Shown in pieces: positions 27,515 through 35,552 of a stretch of DNA of 39,987 nt. Position 1 is the stretch's first letter; each line of letters begins with the position of its first letter. Origin of the DNA: a virus; IMG/VR virus record IMGVR_UViG_2639762563_000001, positions 1 to 39,987 of that record; one strand, written 5' to 3'. The notes below the pieces were generated by a model. The model worked only from the letters and a program-made list of their open reading frames with translations. It had not been told where the DNA came from and searched no databases. Position numbers and translations under genes: made by a program.

Positions 27515-28150
27515 TTACCGGTTAAGCATCGCGTCTTTCGCCTTTTGGATCCGTTTGTATTCCTCAACATCAGGGGCGTCACTGTCGGGGTGGACGTCCG
27601 CCGACTTTCGTCTCGCGACAGCCTTGACGACGTCGTCGGATGCGTCGGGGGAGATCTCGAGAATCTCGTGTGGTTCCTCCTGAAACTCGTCGTCACTCGA
27701 GGCCGGCGGCGCGGCGATCGCGTCCTCATTAGCTGGCGGCAACCGCGCCGTCGCGAACTCCGACTGCCCGGTCGTCACTGGCCGATTCTCCATCTTGCGC
27801 TTTTCGCGGAGGTACAGCCCGATCGCACGGGTGTTATCACGGACACGCGTATAGTGATCGCACGCGATCGCGTAGTCCTCGCCATCGTCAGTCCAGCGGA
27901 GTGCAACGCCGGGATCCTCGGGTTCGGCAGCGCTAGCATAGGGGAGGCCGTCGGTCTTCCGTTGGGGCATCGCGGTCTCGAGTCGCCAGTCGTCGACGTC
28001 GAGGCGATCCATCTCGCGCTTGATGTCCTTGATCGCGTTCCCGAGTGTGACGTCGAACTTGGTGGTCCGTTCACGATTCGTTGAATCGGTTCGCTCGAGC
28101 TCAGTGGGCCAGTCGAGACGGGAGTTCCCGTTGGTGGCTGCACTACTCAT
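27515..28150 (-). CDS. J-domain (DnaJ-like C-terminal domain) protein
   Basis: PHEILEISPDAS...DVHPD...YKRIQKAKDAML J-domain with intact HPD. N-terminal LDWP motif. Confidence 0.85.
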   Translation of the reverse strand: MSSAATNGNSRLDWPTELERTDSTNRERTTKFDVTLGNAIKDIKREMDRLDVDDWRLETAMPQRKTDGLPYASAAEPEDPGVALRWTDDGEDYAIACDHYTRVRDNTRAIGLYLREKRKMENRPVTTGQSEFATARLPPANEDAIAAPPASSDDEFQEEPHEILEISPDASDDVVKAVARRKSADVHPDSDAPDVEEYKRIQKAKDAMLNR

Positions 28151-28385
28151 TGGAATCACTGTCTTCGCAGACCACGTCGCGGAGTTCCTCGAGTAGTTCC
28201 GGGTGGTGTTCTTCGAGTACTTCGATGTCCTTTGTCAGTTCGTCGTTGATCCGAGACCGTACACGCGAGATGGACTGAAGGCGCTGTGACTCCGAAGCGT
28301 CTGCTTCGCCCGAGATGTACTCGCGGTCCGTGTCCGTCATGATTGCACGGTACCGTCCCATTCTGGGTGTTTTATTTTGCGCCAT
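28143..28385 (-). CDS. Small helical regulator, divergent from early operon 1 (putative repressor)
   Basis: RAIMTDTDREYISG...SRVRSRI...HPELLEELRDVVC pattern of small haloarchaeal mobile-element regulators, plus divergent position. Confidence 0.6.
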   Translation of the reverse strand: MAQNKTPRMGRYRAIMTDTDREYISGEADASESQRLQSISRVRSRINDELTKDIEVLEEHHPELLEELRDVVCEDSDSNE

Positions 28386-28421
28386 TGCAAATGAAGCTTC
28401 TTTCTCAGCTCCCTAAAACTT

Positions 28422-28475
28422 TGCGCCTATGCATACATTTGCATTGCTGCAAAACATTTAATATGCACTGGTGCA
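28422..28475. promoter_or_regulatory. Three TGCR-N4-TGCA palindromic operator-like sites around a TATA box
   Basis: TGCGCCTATGCA 28422-28433, TGCATTGCTGCA 28440-28451, TGCACTGGTGCA 28464-28475. TTTAAT at 28457-28462. Confidence 0.6.
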
Positions 28476-28488
28476 AAGTAGTGACTGT

Positions 28489-28549
28489 GAAGCACGGGAC
28501 GCCTCAGAGAATCTGAGGCCGGTGTTCCAGCACCGACCTCTCGTGCTTC
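28489..28549 (+). ncRNA. Structured 5' leader (three-way junction), copy 1
   Basis: 11-bp outer stem 28489-28499/28539-28549 with one G-U, hairpin GCCTCAGA-GAA-TCTGAGGC, hairpin CGGTG-TTCCAG-CACCG. Confidence 0.6.
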
Positions 28550-28560
28550 GGTGAGAAGCA

Positions 28561-28764
28561 ATGGCAACTACACAAGCCCACCTCAAGACGATTGCGGACG
28601 AATCGAACGCTGAATCGGAAACGGAAACCACCCAAACCGACCTAAGTGCGGTCGCTGGCGAGCATACGTCGACGACTGATGCGCTCCCAGATTTCTACGT
28701 CTTCCACGCTGCACGAGAGTTCGCAACGGACGCCCTCGAGACTGCGGTCGCGGAGGCGATCTAA
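28561..28764 (+). CDS. Hypothetical early protein
   Basis: First ORF after the leader, GGTGAG Shine-Dalgarno. Confidence 0.65.
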   Translation: MATTQAHLKTIADESNAESETETTQTDLSAVAGEHTSTTDALPDFYVFHAAREFATDALETAVAEAI

Positions 28765-28765
28765 G

Positions 28766-29251
28766 ATGCGGGCCGCAAAACGACGCTCCATCGAAGCCGA
28801 CCACCTTGAGTCCGAAGCCCAGGACGAACTCCGAATCCAGCGCGAAGCGCAGGCGGTCACCGCCCCCGAAACCGAACTCCGAGCTGATGGCGGCGAGGCG
28901 GACACCTACACCGCAAACGAAAACGCGCAGCTAGAGATCGCCAAGAACGAACTCGAGTACCCACCCGTCGACGTCGGTGATCACGTCCAGGACCGGGAGG
29001 ACATCGACGCGACGATGGTCGTCGTTCGGACGCCGCTCGAGCCGGCCAATGAAGTGGATGCTCGAAACGGGAAGACGGTCGCGGAGTCCAACCCCGGATA
29101 CCCGGCTGACGATGACGTCGTCGTGGTGAAGTTCCCAGAGCGGACGAGCACCGATATAGGACCGCTGCAGGGGTACGCATTTCCACGGACTCGCCTCGAG
29201 ATCGTTGCTCGAGTCCACGATCGCAACGACGACCAGGAGGTGAGCGAGTGA
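28766..29251 (+). CDS. Hypothetical protein with SH3-like haloviral domain
   Basis: VGDHVQDRE...TVAESNPGYPADDDVVVV...YAFPRTRL motif. Confidence 0.65.
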   Translation: MRAAKRRSIEADHLESEAQDELRIQREAQAVTAPETELRADGGEADTYTANENAQLEIAKNELEYPPVDVGDHVQDREDIDATMVVVRTPLEPANEVDARNGKTVAESNPGYPADDDVVVVKFPERTSTDIGPLQGYAFPRTRLEIVARVHDRNDDQEVSE

Positions 29252-29859
29252 TGTCGACCGAAGCAGACGACACCGACGTCGCGGATACAATCAACAGTGA
29301 CACCACCGAGGGGACAGCACTGCCGCGGTCGTTCCTCGTCGAGGGTGCCGGGCCAGTGACCGTCGTTCGCGAACACGGCGACATCACCGAGCGTACCGAA
29401 GGCGAGGTGTCGATCACCCGCCGCCTCGAGACGCTTGATGAGTTCGCACAGTTCTGGCGCTTCCGCGATCTCCGAAACTGGAAGCGAAACGCGATTCGAG
29501 AGGTGCTCGAGTCCCGGGAGAATGAGTTGTTACGGTACGTGATCGACGACGAACAACTCGAGGCCTGGAGCGTTCAGGTCGACGGCCGTGTCCAGGCGTT
29601 CGTCGGCGTTGCCGAGACGATCGTCGGCGGTCAGATCGATCCGAAATCTGTCACAGCAGCCGACCACCGATTCGAGTCCTACCTCCGGAACAACACCGGC
29701 AAAGACGCCGACGAACTGACGCTCGAGTTCGCGAAGGATCTCAAGGGGTCGCCACTGTGGGGGCCTGGCGCTCGACTCGCCGAGCTCGTTGTTCGCCATG
29801 CCGACCGAGAGGATCTGGATGGCTATGTCGCAGCGCTCCTTGAGGAGGTCGATGAGTGA
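29251..29859 (+). CDS. Hypothetical protein
   Basis: TGATG-coupled acidic ORF. Confidence 0.7.
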   Translation: MSTEADDTDVADTINSDTTEGTALPRSFLVEGAGPVTVVREHGDITERTEGEVSITRRLETLDEFAQFWRFRDLRNWKRNAIREVLESRENELLRYVIDDEQLEAWSVQVDGRVQAFVGVAETIVGGQIDPKSVTAADHRFESYLRNNTGKDADELTLEFAKDLKGSPLWGPGARLAELVVRHADREDLDGYVAALLEEVDE

Positions 29860-30191
29860 TGGCGGTCGCCGAATCTCCACAGGCCCACCTCGCCGATCGC
29901 GAACGCCGAGCTCTGGAACAGTACCTCACCGTCCTCGAGGACGATCCGCGCGTTCGCGATGCCGACGACATGTATCTGGTCGTCTCTGAGAGTGGATCGG
30001 AGTACCTCGTCGACGTTCGCGAACGAACGTGCGAGTGCGATGATGCGACCTACCGGGGTGTGACCTGCAAACACCAACATCGAGTCCGCTTTGCGACGGG
30101 CCGGCGATCGATCCCCCTCGGTGCCGATCGCGACGACGTCGACCAACAGTTAGGAGAGCACGTTTCCGGTGAACCCAGGTGGTCGAAGTGA
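29859..30191 (+). CDS. SWIM zinc-finger protein
   Basis: YLVDVRERTCECDDATYRGVTCKH matches CxC...CxH. Confidence 0.85.
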   Translation: MAVAESPQAHLADRERRALEQYLTVLEDDPRVRDADDMYLVVSESGSEYLVDVRERTCECDDATYRGVTCKHQHRVRFATGRRSIPLGADRDDVDQQLGEHVSGEPRWSK

Positions 30192-30421
30192 GTGTGCAAA
30201 CCTCGGATATCAAAGGTGCGGCCAACGCGGTGGAACCACACCCAGTGGTGCTTGACGCCCGCGCTGTCGATCAACATGACGGACACGACGTCCTCGAGAT
30301 CGTGCTGCTCGAACGAGTCGACCGCGTCCCACCGGCGGTCCTCCGCGACCTCGGTGACCACGACTGTGGCATCACATTCGCCCAGCCACAAGGCGACCAT
30401 CTCGTCGTGGAGGTTCAATGA
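30188..30421 (+). CDS. Hypothetical protein
   Basis: GTGA/ATGA-coupled ORF. Confidence 0.6.
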   Translation: MSVQTSDIKGAANAVEPHPVVLDARAVDQHDGHDVLEIVLLERVDRVPPAVLRDLGDHDCGITFAQPQGDHLVVEVQ

Positions 30422-30636
30422 GCCGTGACGCTCTGGCTCCGGACACGGAGTACAACGTCGTTCGCAGCGAGACGTCCATCGATGTCGACGGCTTTCGCAA
30501 AGGTGAGCCGACCGGCGAAATCGAGTGCTGCGAGTGCGGTCGGTCGCATCTGAATATAGACGAAATCCCGCACGAGAAGGACTGCTCGCAGCGCTGGGCG
30601 AAGACAGACTACTGGCGGGATCGGTTCAACGACTAA
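30418..30636 (+). CDS. Small Zn-binding protein
   Basis: CCECG...HEKDC motif. Confidence 0.65.
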   Translation: MSRDALAPDTEYNVVRSETSIDVDGFRKGEPTGEIECCECGRSHLNIDEIPHEKDCSQRWAKTDYWRDRFND

Positions 30637-30696
30637 CTCGTTCTTCTTTTTGCAGAAGCTGATAAGTAGGATGCACTAACACTCACACGTAGTGAG

Positions 30697-31014
30697 ATGG
30701 CTATCTTCGGTACTCTATTCGAAGTGCTGTCCATAACCGGGTACTTTTCTACGCTCTTTGGAATGGTGGCGTACGCTCGTCTCATACTCTCTGAAATATT
30801 TGAACAGGAGAATATCGAGGTGAGTTCGGGGCTTACCTGGCTTGTCGCGCTTTGTGCCATCGTCTCAGCCACAGGAGCGGCTGGATCCAGCCAAATTATC
30901 ACAGCCTATGGGCTCCTGTTGCCGTTGTTCGAAATCATGATGGCGGCTATTGGCGGAGGCGTTGCAATCACGTCTATCTCGCAACTCATACTCTGGCTCG
31001 TCGAGAACACCTAA
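30697..31014 (+). CDS. Three-TM membrane protein (AT-richer insertion)
   Basis: Hydrophobic ORF, compositionally distinct from its flanks. Confidence 0.65.
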   Translation: MAIFGTLFEVLSITGYFSTLFGMVAYARLILSEIFEQENIEVSSGLTWLVALCAIVSATGAAGSSQIITAYGLLLPLFEIMMAAIGGGVAITSISQLILWLVENT

Positions 31015-31114
31015 TATTCAATCACGCATCTTATGAGAACTATACCGGGCCCAGTACAGCGATTATTCGGAATTACAAGTAGTCTTTTTAGGATACCAGA
31101 CAGTTTTCGAGAAT

Positions 31115-32176
31115 ATGATCGCCGATCTGCGGGTGTTCGACGACGAGTTCGTCCCACCCGATTTGCTCCATCGGGAGAACGAGATCGAACAGCTTCTCCG
31201 CCGGTTTACCACCCGCCACCCAGCGGAGTCGGACGTCCTTATCTCCGGACCCAGTGGGGTCGGGAAGACAGTTCTCGCCCGAACAGCGGTCGATCACCTC
31301 GAGACACAGACCGACGTCACGCGGGTGTTCGTCGACTCGCTCGGGAAGACGACCGGCGGCATTCTTCGGGCGATGCTCGAGCAGCTGCCTCGAGGACCGA
31401 ACGAGGTCGCCCAGACCCTCCCGACGAGAGACGTCTGCCGAGAGATCCGTGAGGCGATCACCAGCGAAACGATCGTCGTCCTGGATGAAGGTGATGATCT
31501 CCCCCAGACGAACGCAGTCGGTGAACTGCTCGCGATGGCGAACGTCACGGTCGTGGTGATCGCCCACGACGGAACCGATTGGCTCTCACGTCTGGACGTC
31601 ACCGACGGCCACCGACTCGACCAGGGTCACCTTGAGCTCGGACGCTACGGCGTCGACGAACTCGCGGACATCCTTGAGCGGCGTGCCCGCCAGGGATTGC
31701 ATGGCGAACCCGTCTCTCGAGCCCAACTCGAGGCGATCGCCGACGAGGTCGCCGGCGTCGCTCGCCATGGGATCCAGTCGCTGCGCTCCGCGGCAGTGCT
31801 CGCTCGGGAACGCGGCCACCGTCGGGTGCGCGATCGGGACGTCGACGACTCCTACGAACATGCCCGCCACCGAATTCGGAAGTTGAATCTAAGTTCATTG
31901 CCGTTTCACCACCAAGTGCTGTATGCGATAATTCACGAAGCTGAGGAGCTCTCGGCGTCGGAGTTGCACGACCGCTACGACGCTGTTTCGGGGGATATCT
32001 ATGCGGGGTCGCCGCCGCAACCACTTGGAGAACGCGCTCGCCGGGAGAAGCTCTCGAAGCTTGCAGAGTACGATCTCATCGACTATGACGGTCCGACACG
32101 TGATCGGCTCTACTGGGTAATTGATTCTGATGTAGAACCATTGCTAGAACTACCGGGAAGAATGCCATTAGAATGA
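31115..32176 (+). CDS. cdc6: Orc1/Cdc6-family AAA+ protein
   Basis: FVPPDLLHRENEIEQL, Walker A GPSGVGKT, Walker B VVLDEGD, C-terminal winged helix. Confidence 0.9.
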   Translation: MIADLRVFDDEFVPPDLLHRENEIEQLLRRFTTRHPAESDVLISGPSGVGKTVLARTAVDHLETQTDVTRVFVDSLGKTTGGILRAMLEQLPRGPNEVAQTLPTRDVCREIREAITSETIVVLDEGDDLPQTNAVGELLAMANVTVVVIAHDGTDWLSRLDVTDGHRLDQGHLELGRYGVDELADILERRARQGLHGEPVSRAQLEAIADEVAGVARHGIQSLRSAAVLARERGHRRVRDRDVDDSYEHARHRIRKLNLSSLPFHHQVLYAIIHEAEELSASELHDRYDAVSGDIYAGSPPQPLGERARREKLSKLAEYDLIDYDGPTRDRLYWVIDSDVEPLLELPGRMPLE

Positions 32177-32304
32177 CCAATCGTCTTTTAGAACCACAAT
32201 TATATTTAAAACAGATCTATTATAACTTCAATATTCACAGTTTCCTTTGATTGGCACATAGCGCTGATCAGGAGTAGGCTAACGGTATAGAGTACAAAAG
32301 CGAG

Positions 32305-32483
32305 GGCTCTGGTGAATCGCTAGACTCCGGCGACTTTCAACTCTATATCAGGTGCTCGATGCACTACTCTTGGACAATTCTGGCTTCAGTTTCCCCCGAA
32401 TCTCTGCTGGCGAAACGATTGGACTCATTCACAGTGCCACTATGTAGGTCCAACCCAACGCCCTATGGCGATTCACCAGAGCC
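32305..32483. mobile_element. 179-bp MITE with 16-bp TIRs and 8-bp TSD
   Basis: GGCTCTGGTGAATCGC at 32305-32320 and GCGATTCACCAGAGCC at 32468-32483. AAAGCGAG at 32297-32304 and 32484-32491. Confidence 0.88.
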
Positions 32484-32597
32484 AAAGCGAGTAAAGGCCA
32501 AATGAGGTGGATGTTCTCGATCATTGTTCAGTGAAAGATTGGTTGCTAAGGATGATTTAAATAGGGCGAGAAACTACTTTAACGTGGTATATTATAT

Positions 32598-33980
32598 ATG
32601 GCCGATGAAGGTCGATCAAGAGGCGGCCCCGCCTCTTTTGCTTTGACACAAGCGGAAAGAGAGTTCCTAAAAAACGGATCTACCGGTGGTTATCGAAAAT
32701 CGAAATTGGAGTCGCAGATAGAAGCGAAAAAGGATAAATTACCTGAACGTTTTGAGAGGCTTATGGATGATATGGAATTACTTTCTGATCGAATGGATGT
32801 GGATATGCTAGAACAGTTATCGCTCAAAAGTTTGCCAAATTCACTATCAATGTATGATTCATCAATACCACTGACAGAGCTAAATCTGGAGTTCAGGCCG
32901 ATGTCTCCGGCCTGTGAATTAGGGAGAGAAATAGGTGAAACCATACATCACGTAATGAGTGGTCGCGATGATCAGCAAATGCGAGAGATAGTATCTCAGA
33001 TGTCATTTGGATTCATACTTGGTGCATATATACTTCCATTGCCAGTTGCGGAGGTTGACAAACATGGAGTTGATCAATTTATTGGTGAAATAAATGAGAT
33101 GTCACTCACATTCGCTTCTAAGTTTGACGAGGAGAGAATGACATTCGACGAATTTACGGAAGGGATGGATGAATATAGTCAAAAATGGAGGGAAATCGAG
33201 AGAGATATTGATCAAAATATCCGGCATACATTATTCGAAGCTGGCTATCTTTATGACGACGACCAACATTTATTTCCAGACCCCACACCCGATGGGATAT
33301 TATTTTCCCTTGATGATACTGATTATTCGACGAAATGGGAGGAGTATAGAAACTCACGAAGTCACAAAATAATCAAAAAAACAAGAGACTACTTGATCGC
33401 AGATGGTGTGGATAGTGATATCATCGACATGAGTGTTGGTTATAGCACTATTCCCGGTTCTGGAGGTAATGTGGCGGCATTCCAAGATACCCACGATTTA
33501 GATCAATTAGATGTAGATGTGTTCGCCTCAAAAGAGAACATTCTTGAAGTGTATTCCAAGTATCGTATCCGAAAGCGAATCCAGCTTAGTTCTCGGCTAG
33601 CGGAAGACACCTCTCGACTGAGAGATCATCGGTGGAGAGGAGTCAATGCATTTCAGGTTTTCAAACTAATAAACACTGAGGGACCTAATATATCCTCACA
33701 TGAAATTGCTGAAATTATTGGTTCCCGGAAACACCGTGATCCTCAAGTAACGGCTATTGGTCGGGCACTTTCAGGAGAACACTATGACTCTCAAACAAAT
33801 TGGAAAGAACTTCCTTTACTATCAGGTAACAAGAGATCATGGAGACTGACTGATTATGGGGAAGTATTAGCTCAATATATATTTCGGGATTTGCCAATGT
33901 TCAACAAATTATCTCAGATTCCGAAGGAATTGGTCAATCAAGGTATTGACTCGCTAGAAGAAATCACGCCCTCTAGATAA
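32598..33980 (+). CDS. Hypothetical 460-aa protein in AT-richer DNA, probable C-terminal winged helix
   Basis: N-terminal ALTQAEREFL motif. C-terminal ISSHEIAEII...WRLTDYGEVL. Confidence 0.7.
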   Translation: MADEGRSRGGPASFALTQAEREFLKNGSTGGYRKSKLESQIEAKKDKLPERFERLMDDMELLSDRMDVDMLEQLSLKSLPNSLSMYDSSIPLTELNLEFRPMSPACELGREIGETIHHVMSGRDDQQMREIVSQMSFGFILGAYILPLPVAEVDKHGVDQFIGEINEMSLTFASKFDEERMTFDEFTEGMDEYSQKWREIERDIDQNIRHTLFEAGYLYDDDQHLFPDPTPDGILFSLDDTDYSTKWEEYRNSRSHKIIKKTRDYLIADGVDSDIIDMSVGYSTIPGSGGNVAAFQDTHDLDQLDVDVFASKENILEVYSKYRIRKRIQLSSRLAEDTSRLRDHRWRGVNAFQVFKLINTEGPNISSHEIAEIIGSRKHRDPQVTAIGRALSGEHYDSQTNWKELPLLSGNKRSWRLTDYGEVLAQYIFRDLPMFNKLSQIPKELVNQGIDSLEEITPSR

Positions 33981-34092
33981 TATACTGTTTTCTGCGACCC
34001 TTTCAGAGTGATATAGATAATATATCTATCTGACGAGACATTCGGAATTGAAAGGGGGTTTAAAGCAAACACCATGCCAATCAGCGGTTGTC

Positions 34093-34353
34093 ATGTCGAC
34101 TGCAAGGCGAACGATCGATGTCGACCTCCGCACTGACGTCGACGCCGAGATCCCGGCGGAGGTGCCACGGGTAATTGCGCTTGAGATCGAGTACGGTGAC
34201 GACAGCGAGCGAACGGTGCATCTCAATCACGGACCAGAAGAGTGGACGTTCGAATTCGTCCGGGGGCAGTGTACCGATCGCGATCCACCAACACGGACAG
34301 TCCCGCAGTGGATCAACGAAGCGCTCAGAGCTGTGGAAGCAGAGATCCGGTGA
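34093..34353 (+). CDS. Hypothetical protein
   Basis: TTTAAA upstream. Convergent with the repressor. Confidence 0.6.
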   Translation: MSTARRTIDVDLRTDVDAEIPAEVPRVIALEIEYGDDSERTVHLNHGPEEWTFEFVRGQCTDRDPPTRTVPQWINEALRAVEAEIR

Positions 34354-34362
34354 GAGAAGATG

Positions 34363-34680
34363 TCAGTCTTCGACGCCCTCGACCGGCTCGAGTTCCCCAG
34401 CGTCGAGGTCCCCCTCGAGATAAGCTTCTCCGAACTCTGTCAACCGATAAAGTCCACGGTCAAGTCGCTCAAGCAATCCGTATTTCGTGAGCTCTCGGCA
34501 CCGGTCGCCGGCATATTCACGGCTGATGTCGATACGAGGAACAAAACCGTCACGAGACAATGCTCGAGGCGTCATGTTCCCCTCCTCATTCATCAGTTCC
34601 AGAATGCGATCGTCAGTCGGCGAACGCATCCAATCTGCCGGCTTCCTCATCTGTCGTTTAACTGGGTCGGTAGGACTCAT
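34363..34680 (-). CDS. PhiH1 repressor-like winged-helix protein
   Basis: WMRSPTDDRILELM...YAGDRCRELTKYGLLE...GLYRLTEFGEAYLEGDLDA pattern. Divergent from early operon 2. Confidence 0.85.
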   Translation of the reverse strand: MSPTDPVKRQMRKPADWMRSPTDDRILELMNEEGNMTPRALSRDGFVPRIDISREYAGDRCRELTKYGLLERLDRGLYRLTEFGEAYLEGDLDAGELEPVEGVED

Positions 34681-34701
34681 ATGTACACCGATATGATGAC
34701 C

Positions 34702-35057
34702 TGTTCAGGCCACTAGCCTATAAGAGTCCGGTTACTAGCTGGTAGATATCCGGCCAGTGGTGGGAAAAGTATTAAACGGTCGAACCAGTCACTATAGATA
34801 GGAAGTCATCCTCGCCAGAATCTGCGAAGATTCGGGGTGTTGGCGCACCCCGAGGTTGACTTCCGAACCCTTCACACGGGGAATTCAGAAGTCATGTCCA
34901 ACGAGCACACCGGGGTAAAAAGAGATTGCCCCACAGAACGCAGTACCGCCGGCCGTCCACACGGCCGAGATGACTCTCCAGCGCCCACTGATTTATCCGA
35001 AAAACCACCGCGCGGCAACGCGGTAGCACAGACGGGAGGTTGTTCAGGCCACCAGCC
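34702..35057 (+). repeat. 17-bp direct repeat TGTTCAGGCCACYAGCC at 34702-34718 and 35041-35057 (possible operator)
   Basis: One mismatch. One copy in the repressor promoter region, one inside the first early ORF. Confidence 0.5.
34801..34864 (+). ncRNA. Structured 5' leader (three-way junction), copy 2
   Basis: GGAAGTCA/TGACTTCC plus CCTC/GAGG outer stem, hairpin GAATCT-GCGA-AGATTC, hairpin GGGGTG-TTGGCG-CACCCC. TATTAAA at 34770-34776. Confidence 0.6.
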
Positions 35058-35178
35058 CCGTCTAGGAAACTCGCACACGCGCGACGCGGATAACGCTACC
35101 CCATCGACATACCTGGTCGAGGCGCTCGAGCGTGCCGACCGCTACGATTCGACGTTCTTCTACGGGGTGCGACTATGA
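34894..35178 (+). CDS. Hypothetical low-complexity early protein
   Basis: First ORF after the leader, ATGA overlap with the next gene. Confidence 0.5.
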   Translation: MSNEHTGVKRDCPTERSTAGRPHGRDDSPAPTDLSEKPPRGNAVAQTGGCSGHQPRLGNSHTRDADNATPSTYLVEALERADRYDSTFFYGVRL

Positions 35179-35552
35179 CTGCAGCCGCCCGACCCGATCA
35201 GCCTGCGAAATTCCCACGCAAGCTGACGACCGACAAGGCGCTGCACCTGTTCCAGCCGATTCGCCGCCGACTCGTCGTCGAGCTCGTCGACGTACTCGGA
35301 CCGATGCATATCCGAGCGCTGTCGGACGCGATCGCGTGCATCACCGACAGCCAGTACGACTCCGTATACGTCTCGCTATCTCAGCAACATCTCCCGAAAC
35401 TCGACGATTACGACATCGTCGAATTCGATGAGCAGGACCTCGAGGTCGCACCAGGCCCCCACTTTGCTGACTGTGCGGCGTTTGTCGACGACGCCCAGAG
35501 CCGGTTCCGCTCAGAAGCCGACAGCGAACAGATCGATAGAGGTGAGCGGTGA
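35175..35552 (+). CDS. Haloarchaeal ArsR-like winged-helix protein
   Basis: RRRLVVEL...VYVSLSQQHLPKLDDYDIVEFD motif. Confidence 0.8.
   Translation: MTAAARPDQPAKFPRKLTTDKALHLFQPIRRRLVVELVDVLGPMHIRALSDAIACITDSQYDSVYVSLSQQHLPKLDDYDIVEFDEQDLEVAPGPHFADCAAFVDDAQSRFRSEADSEQIDRGER

Follow-up and report, generated by a model that had tools for sequence, protein, structure and literature searches.

The DNA stretch analysed here (39,987 nucleotides (nt) of virus record IMGVR_UViG_2639762563_000001, hereafter the window) belongs to a haloarchaeal assembly of 4.1 Mb (contig C14) and carries a tailed virus or provirus akin to HJTV-4, BJ1 and the Halorubrum tailed viruses. Two early operons of the window, each with a divergently oriented regulator gene alongside, carry at their predicted transcript start a compact element, designated el1 and el2, in which an outer stem closes two hairpins to form a three-way junction. 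Judging from sequence and predicted folding, el1 and el2 both belong to a single family of structured 5′ leader RNAs. The junction fold is conserved, covaries, is selected on the sense strand and lies at the mapped transcript starts of the haloviruses phiH and SNJ2. An earlier note, made from the sequence of the window, had proposed that the two elements are related, act at the RNA level and are cis-encoded leaders at the predicted starts of two divergent early operons, and this proposal is borne out here. The features of the two regions are listed below in order of position, with the free energy of folding (dG) and its z-score for the junctions and the expect value (E) for database matches.

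28143-28385, minus strand: divergent gene of 80 amino acids, PHROG 26393 (phrog_26393), the regulator-side partner of el1 (PHROG match, E 7.6e-31)
28457-28464, plus strand: TATA-like box of the el1 promoter, at -32 to -25 from the first paired base
28489-28549, plus strand: el1 three-way-junction leader (fold, dG -36.7 kcal/mol, z -6.32)
28555-28563, plus strand: second copy of the el1 5′-arm sequence, six bases with the ATG directly after, which can form a helix with the outer-stem 3′ arm
28561-28764, plus strand: first gene of the el1 operon, 67 amino acids, without a family match in Pfam and PHROG searches (from the open reading frame list)
34363-34680, minus strand: divergent gene of a phiH-RepR-like winged-helix repressor, 105 amino acids, the regulator-side partner of el2 (PHROG 2440, "transcriptional regulator", E 9.4e-34)
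34770-34776, plus strand: TATA-like box of the el2 promoter, at -31 to -25 from the first paired base
34801-34864, plus strand: el2 three-way-junction leader (fold, dG -36.2 kcal/mol, z -5.36)
34865-34886, plus strand: hairpin 3, between the el2 junction and the start codon (from the fold)
34888-34896, plus strand: second copy of the el2 5′-arm sequence, eight bases identical to 34802-34809, overlapping the ATG at 34894-34896 (from sequence and constrained fold)
34894-35178, plus strand: first gene of the el2 operon, 94 amino acids, with an N-terminus kept in relatives
34912-34932, plus strand: possible hairpin 4, within the first codons of the el2-operon gene (a conserved covarying stem in the alignment of relatives)

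Both elements fold into the common architecture, and inside the outer stem the two hairpins abut without a spacer. The outer stem of el1 pairs 28489-28499 with 28539-28549, with hairpin 1 at 28501-28519 and hairpin 2 at 28520-28535; the outer stem of el2 contains one bulge, and its hairpins occupy 34818-34833 and 34834-34851. The z-scores refer to 200 dinucleotide shuffles, none of which was equally stable, and el1 and el2 rank second and third among the 736 compact three-way junctions of up to 70 nt on the two strands of the window. A scan for three-way junctions of up to 100 nt yielded hundreds of matches in this window of 60% guanine-cytosine (GC) content and was non-discriminating. Since junction-like folds are common in the GC-rich DNA of the window, energy alone proves little, and the weight of the evidence for the two elements lies on position and conservation. 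The most stable compact junction of the window (31700-31769; dG -41.6 on the minus and -35.9 on the plus strand) is found inside the Orc1/Cdc6-like gene at 31115-32176 and gives weak minus-strand matches of 14.6-15.2 bits to the covariance models R1 and R2 described below.

The GAAG...CTTC ends recorded in the earlier note are present in both elements and appear as a true family feature, many members starting with GGAAG and ending with CUUCC. The GGTGTT-N3-GCACC hairpin is likewise found where it had been placed, and this second-hairpin motif is the most conserved part of the family. An octamer at 28508-28515 and 34817-34824 does occur in both elements, but its suggested role as a shared functional motif did not hold up. 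In el1 it covers the hairpin 1 loop and 3′ arm, in el2 the junction and the 5′ arm of that hairpin, and it is not kept in the closest relatives of el2, in which hairpin 1 covaries; in the relatives of el1 a part of it persists as hairpin 1 loop and 3′ arm. By estimate, two 60-mers would share an octamer by chance about 1 time in 20, and its presence in both el1 and el2 is largely a coincidence.

The promoter geometry is the same at the two sites, with a TATA-like box 25-32 nt upstream, the divergent regulator alongside and the operon ahead, largely as the earlier note had it. In both elements the two hairpins begin 12-17 nt after the predicted start, and the end of the junction is separated from the ATG by 11 nt in el1 and 29 nt in el2.

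Conservation of the junction and its place at the transcript start

Relatives were collected by tblastn with both regulators, followed by reading of the divergent leaders. Eight relatives (HJTV-4, both modules of Humcor1, Halorubrum tailed virus DL_1.7, BJ1, the pleolipovirus Harhisp1, phiH and phiCh1) have the el1/el2 architecture built from other stem sequences, and HHPV4, SNJ2 and Halfgib1 carry larger variants that retain the conserved second hairpin. Overall, 11 sequenced haloviruses belonging to two realms have the junction in the leader opposite a divergent RepR-like or phrog_26393 gene. Hairpin 3 is present with covarying stems in the el2 relatives, and also in BJ1 and Humcor1.

That the stems of el1 and el2 differ in sequence with pairing kept, as had been noted from the two copies, extends to their homologues, whose stems covary. 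In an alignment of 25 sequences (A10), 98.9% of the cells are paired, two-sided changes occur in 17 of the 19 pairs, and the covariation score is 0.758 versus 0.214 in shuffles, none of 500 reaching the observed value, and 0.05-0.14 with slid partners. The alignments used for such counting were fitted to the model, except for a structure-blind MAFFT/RNAalifold run, which recovered the three helices with compensatory changes in 10 of 13 pairs. The el2-type alignment is 95.6% paired versus 37-50% when slid, with 20 of 25 pairs compensatory; el2 itself differs from its closest relative at 9 of 64 positions, seven of them in hairpin 1, with the pairing retained. A10 contains approximately 31 G.U cells versus 5 unpaired cells, and the el2 type has 43 G.U versus 13 A.C cells. 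As the G.U pairs are abundant and would be mismatches on the opposite strand, the selected RNA is the sense strand of the operon; the plus-strand fold is also more stable than the minus-strand fold in most members. Hairpin 2 is conserved both in its stem and in a loop that usually starts with pyrimidine-U-G, and the loop of hairpin 1 is purine-rich. A reading of hairpin 2 as a Shine-Dalgarno or anti-Shine-Dalgarno mimic was discarded, as the U of GGUG is often C.

The junction coincides with the start of the transcript where starts have been mapped. In phiH the T4 start given in the record annotation is the third base of the maximal closing helix. In SNJ2 the PInt transcripts start 132 or 114 bp before orf3 (PMC5861418), and placing the 114-bp start on the SNJ2 locus coordinates puts it 1-2 nt ahead of the structure. 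In the 53 family members profiled, A+T content is highest, with a fraction of 0.8-1.0, at positions -31 to -27 from the first paired base. An antisense RNA of phiH was considered as acting on T4 and rejected, the halovirus review having T1 as its target.

The search for homologues with covariance models, which the earlier note had suggested, gave matches in haloviruses and in dozens of haloarchaeal genomes. A MAFFT alignment of el1 with el2 was structurally meaningless, and the models were therefore seeded from BJ1 alone (R1), from seven R1 matches (R2) and from el2 with its nearest relative (R3). R1 retrieves both Humcor1 copies, DL_1.7, Harhisp1 and also el1 (E 0.018, with el1 then outside any seed); run genome-wide on the window's own genome, it gives no match at E<=1. 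Against R2, of whose seed it is a member, el1 scores 52 bits. R2 detects 16 sites in 13 of 150 other Halobacteria genomes (E<=0.01 per genome), and the divergent gene directly upstream is RepR-like (7) or a PHROG 26393 homologue (10) in 17 of the 18 genomic R2 matches. Built without el2, R2 recognises el2 with 16 bits and E 0.0019 on the plus strand only, a significance confined to its own, a priori chosen intergenic region; in a 56-kb search el2 (E 0.5), HJTV-4 and one further locus (L033) fall short of significance (E 0.5-0.85). The relationship between el1 and el2 consequently rests on architecture, position and a modest score. R3 detects 44 further sites, spread over 31 of the 150 genomes searched in the host's family, and has matches in two other families. 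Rfam 15 at the gathering score gives no match in the whole window or in 11 loci with relatives, and the sole match in 28300-35100 at E<=10 is a chance snoRNA elsewhere than el1 and el2; the RNA, widespread as it is, had not been catalogued before.

Many of the R3 matches belong to chromosomal units that lack a RepR-like gene in the surrounding 1.5 kb. They show a constant order of TATA-box promoter, junction, hairpin 3, arm copy with AUG and a conserved covarying hairpin 4, and end in a small acidic CPxCG zinc-finger open reading frame approximately 120-145 nt further on. Such units (loci L063-L082 and L089-L096) number up to three per genome and are flanked by ordinary genes such as those for PhoD, Fe-ADH and adenine deaminase; beyond 1.5 kb downstream, the genes that follow the chromosomal copies share no common theme. 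Genes for phiH-RepR-like winged-helix proteins are present in 369 of 401 Halobacteria genomes, often in more than ten copies per genome; they far exceed the RNA matches, and most copies are therefore unpaired with a leader at the thresholds used.

Regarding the neighbouring genes, HJTV-4, Humcor1 and the Halorubrum tailed virus each have a homologue of PHROG 26393 directly ahead of the RNA and divergent from it, and the repressor on the el2 side has tblastn matches in BJ1 (gp20), Humcor1, Harhisp1, HHPV4 and SNJ2 and to the repR genes of phiH and phiCh1. The el1 operon extends to the Orc1/Cdc6-like gene at 31115-32176, and the first gene of the el2 operon is followed by one for a DUF7344 protein at 35175-35552 and then by genes without a family match. 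The promoter region upstream of el1 (28386-28488) contains short TTGCA/TGCAA repeats, and el1-type promoter regions elsewhere have virus-specific ones, TACGCA/TGCGTA in HJTV-4 and TTAGC/GCTAA in Humcor1, which by their appearance may be operators of the 80-amino-acid regulator. Between the two regulatory modules, the region 32000-34000 has a GC content of 0.40-0.45 versus approximately 0.6 elsewhere in the window and includes an open reading frame of 460 amino acids (32598-33980) without a Pfam or PHROG match; it looks like a foreign insert.

A potential second partner for the 3′ arm of the closing stem

The bases preceding the start codon are complementary to the 3′ arm of the closing stem because they repeat its 5′ arm. 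This repeat ahead of the AUG covaries with the stem sequence across types, as seen in the el1, el2, chromosomal and BJ1 types, in SNJ2, in Halfgib1 and in others. In 17 hand-picked, not fully independent representatives, pairing of the 3′ arm with its own start region has a mean energy of -9.9 kcal/mol versus -5.8 kcal/mol for cross pairs, and 0 of 20,000 permutations of own versus cross pairs reach the observed value (p ~5e-5).

Constrained folding gives a corresponding picture. If the first 8 nt are kept unpaired, nine of nine leaders refold with their 3′ arm across the start region, and the unpaired probability of positions -6 to +3 drops from 0.40-0.92 to 0.02-0.43, at a refolding cost of 4-9.5 kcal/mol. 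Blocking the 5′ arm lowers the mean unpaired probability of these positions from 0.72 to 0.18 in el1, and that of the start region from 0.92 to 0.20 in el2. The earlier note had left open whether the element serves antitermination or translational control, and the alternative helix over the start codon region lends computational support to the latter.

Proposed switch and competing explanations

The element is best read, with a probability of roughly 0.5, as a cis-acting leader switch that would govern access to the start site and protect the 5′ end, a reading built on sequence and modelled folds. Transcription of each early operon would begin with the first base of the element or 1-2 nt ahead of it, so that the initial 55-65 nt of the mRNA would fold at once into the junction, its closing stem made of the 5′ terminus and the 3′ arm and enclosing the two stacked hairpins without a spacer. 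The 3′ arm would then have two near-identical partners, the 5′ terminus or the 6-9 nt ending at the start codon. In the closed junction the 5′ end would be buried in a helix and the start codon free, and the first gene would be translated. Should the 5′ arm be removed or occupied, via decay from the 5′ end, a protein or another RNA, the freed 3′ arm would fold onto the start region and turn translation off. Hairpin 2, in both stem and loop, and the purine-rich loop of hairpin 1 would be the likely contacts of a factor that sets the switch, and the RNA would constitute a second, post-transcriptional layer over repressor-controlled lysis/lysogeny or early promoters.

Several observations weigh against this model. 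The start is mapped in phiH and SNJ2 only, those of el1 and el2 being predicted; the closed junction is thermodynamically favoured by the 4-9.5 kcal/mol mentioned above; and in the long leaders of phiH and phiCh1 (approximately 175 nt to the first open reading frame in phiH) no obvious copy of the arm ahead of the ATG was seen by eye. The hand-picked nature of the 17 representatives and the fitting of the counting alignments to the model count on the same side. Furthermore, "another palindrome" is drawn in the 5′ untranslated region of SNJ2, and its mutant left repression intact and did not visibly change a plate reporter assay (PMC10123103); if that palindrome, the position of which is not given in the text, is part of the junction, its effect in cis would be modest or condition-dependent.

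A simpler function would be that of a pure 5′-terminal stabiliser, with the closing stem only shielding the early mRNA from a 5′-to-3′ exonuclease of the RNase J type and the similarity ahead of the AUG having no switching role. Terminal stem-loops are known to stabilise mRNAs in bacteria and phages, and in the leaders of Escherichia coli ompA and Bacillus phage SP82 the helix likewise begins no more than a couple of nucleotides from the mRNA 5′ end; both the coincidence of helix start and mapped or predicted transcript start throughout the family and the preference for the closed form would fit. Still, those leaders are simple hairpins, with no conserved junction, conserved loops or arm complementary to the start site, and a terminal hairpin would suffice for protection, so that the conserved three-way geometry and the sequence and loop of hairpin 2 are left over, nor would the tracking of the stem by the pre-AUG sequence across types be required; stabilisation as the sole function is thus considered rather unlikely. 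A different use of the same complementarity is exemplified by the P4 CI and P1/P7 c4 immunity RNAs, which like el1 and el2 come from the immunity region and contain a leader segment complementary to two repeated targets, one of them over the translation start of the first gene, a layout also seen here in the 3′ arm with its two partners and comparable to seqA/seqB/seqC of P4, where one sequence is complementary to two flanking copies. By analogy, the junction might be cut out or terminated as a small RNA of approximately 60-100 nt that acts in trans, its 3′ arm pairing with the start regions of incoming or resident copies. The small stand-alone chromosomal relatives, up to three in a genome, and the 3-4 U residues after hairpin 3 in some of them would agree with such a product. 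The immunity RNAs of these bacterial elements are, however, processed and act through exposed loops, in contrast to the antisense segment of the junction, which is locked in the closing stem; in addition, hairpin 3 is lacking in el1 and a U run ahead of the ATG in el2, and a trans-acting RNA is accordingly judged unlikely.

The put sites of HK022 (putL and putR) and the nut/boxB sites of lambda, to which the earlier note had compared the elements, are likewise cis-encoded RNAs directly after early promoters of temperate viruses, and put (approximately 70 nt) shares the two adjacent stem-loops. A nascent junction that binds the archaeal RNA polymerase or a viral factor could by this parallel provide processive read-through of the multi-kb operons. 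Runs of five T on the plus strand of the two operons, possible archaeal termination signals by sequence, occur only at 30647, 31085 and 36643; the former two, 2.1-2.5 kb past el1, fall between genes of the el1 operon, one of them just upstream of the Orc1/Cdc6-like gene, and would offer sites to be read through, whereas the el2 operon has a single run, inside a gene. Put and nut suppress terminators by acting on the bacterial RNA polymerase and have no sequence or model similarity to el1 and el2, which resemble no Rfam family either; archaeal Nus factors differ from the bacterial ones, and we know of no RNA-mediated antitermination for archaeal polymerases. The enclosing third helix from the very 5′ end is absent in put, no terminator-like signal is found between junction and first gene at either el1 or el2, the versions in SNJ2 and Halfgib1 precede short integrase operons, and the match of the 3′ arm to the start-codon region is left unexplained, so that antitermination appears very unlikely and the design suggests an on/off translation switch of the first gene instead. 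Only slightly less doubtful is the broader proposal that the junction would be the first RNA known to engage directly the archaeal machinery of transcription or translation in a virus, whether by put-like read-through of the oligo-T sites of the early operon or as a sensor of a factor or ligand by which tailed and pleomorphic haloviruses alike would decide, at the RNA level, for lysogeny or lytic growth.

The inverted repeats could finally function as DNA, as operators of the divergent regulator, as a cruciform or as a single-strand replication signal. Hairpin 2 is a palindrome of 5-7 bp with a spacer of 4-7 bp, the size of a dimer operator, and the repressor gene adjoins it. El1 and el2 nevertheless fail as RepR operators, as they lie downstream of the start and have strand-specific G.U pairs, and in SNJ2 the RepR-like Orf4 acts via a different palindrome, mapped genetically beside or upstream of the TATA box, with repression persisting in the mutant of the 5′-untranslated-region palindrome (PMC10123103); because that operator is a separate palindrome beside the TATA box, the element is not the operator of the repressor. 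Protein operators in general are disfavoured because three nested helices covary, with arms up to 40 nt apart, and because one and the same RNA accompanies two unrelated regulator families. A replication-origin role of the SNJ2 leader was rejected, the origin being located downstream of orf19 (PMC13107129), and a DNA-level function is on the whole highly improbable.

Significance for haloviral switches

The promoter-operator regions of phiH T4, phiCh1 ORF49 and SNJ2 PInt are the same loci as those described here, the junction RNA being their untranslated transcript start. Published work on the three viruses deals with repressor, operator and promoter, and no description of a conserved RNA structure at these loci was found in PMC6210493, PMC4284463, PMC7911831, PMC10123103, PMC5861418 and PMC13107129, which cover the phiH1 genome, Hardycor1/Humcor1, a halovirus review and three SNJ2 studies, a search that did not extend to the phiH papers of the 1990s and the 2007 phiCh1 operator paper.

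Novel are the junction family itself, its occurrence in Archaea and its location in the switch region of haloviruses; a leader with competing helices is known as a device from bacteria and phages. To our knowledge, cis-regulatory RNAs of archaeal viruses are essentially undescribed. Haloarchaeal mRNAs are mostly leaderless, and initiation on leadered ones is poorly understood; the junction offers a case of leader-dependent haloarchaeal translation control that can be put to direct test with existing genetic systems, the SNJ2/Natrinema reporter plasmids and phiCh1/Natrialba. The R1-R3 models could in turn mark the regulatory regions of haloarchaeal proviruses. The junction RNA is common to Caudoviricetes, pleolipoviruses and chromosomal units. 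Accounts of the choice between lysis and lysogeny in phiH, phiCh1 and SNJ2 have until now involved no more than repressors and operators, and a conserved, covarying RNA that opens the transcript under repressor control would represent a layer of these model switches that has gone unrecognised.

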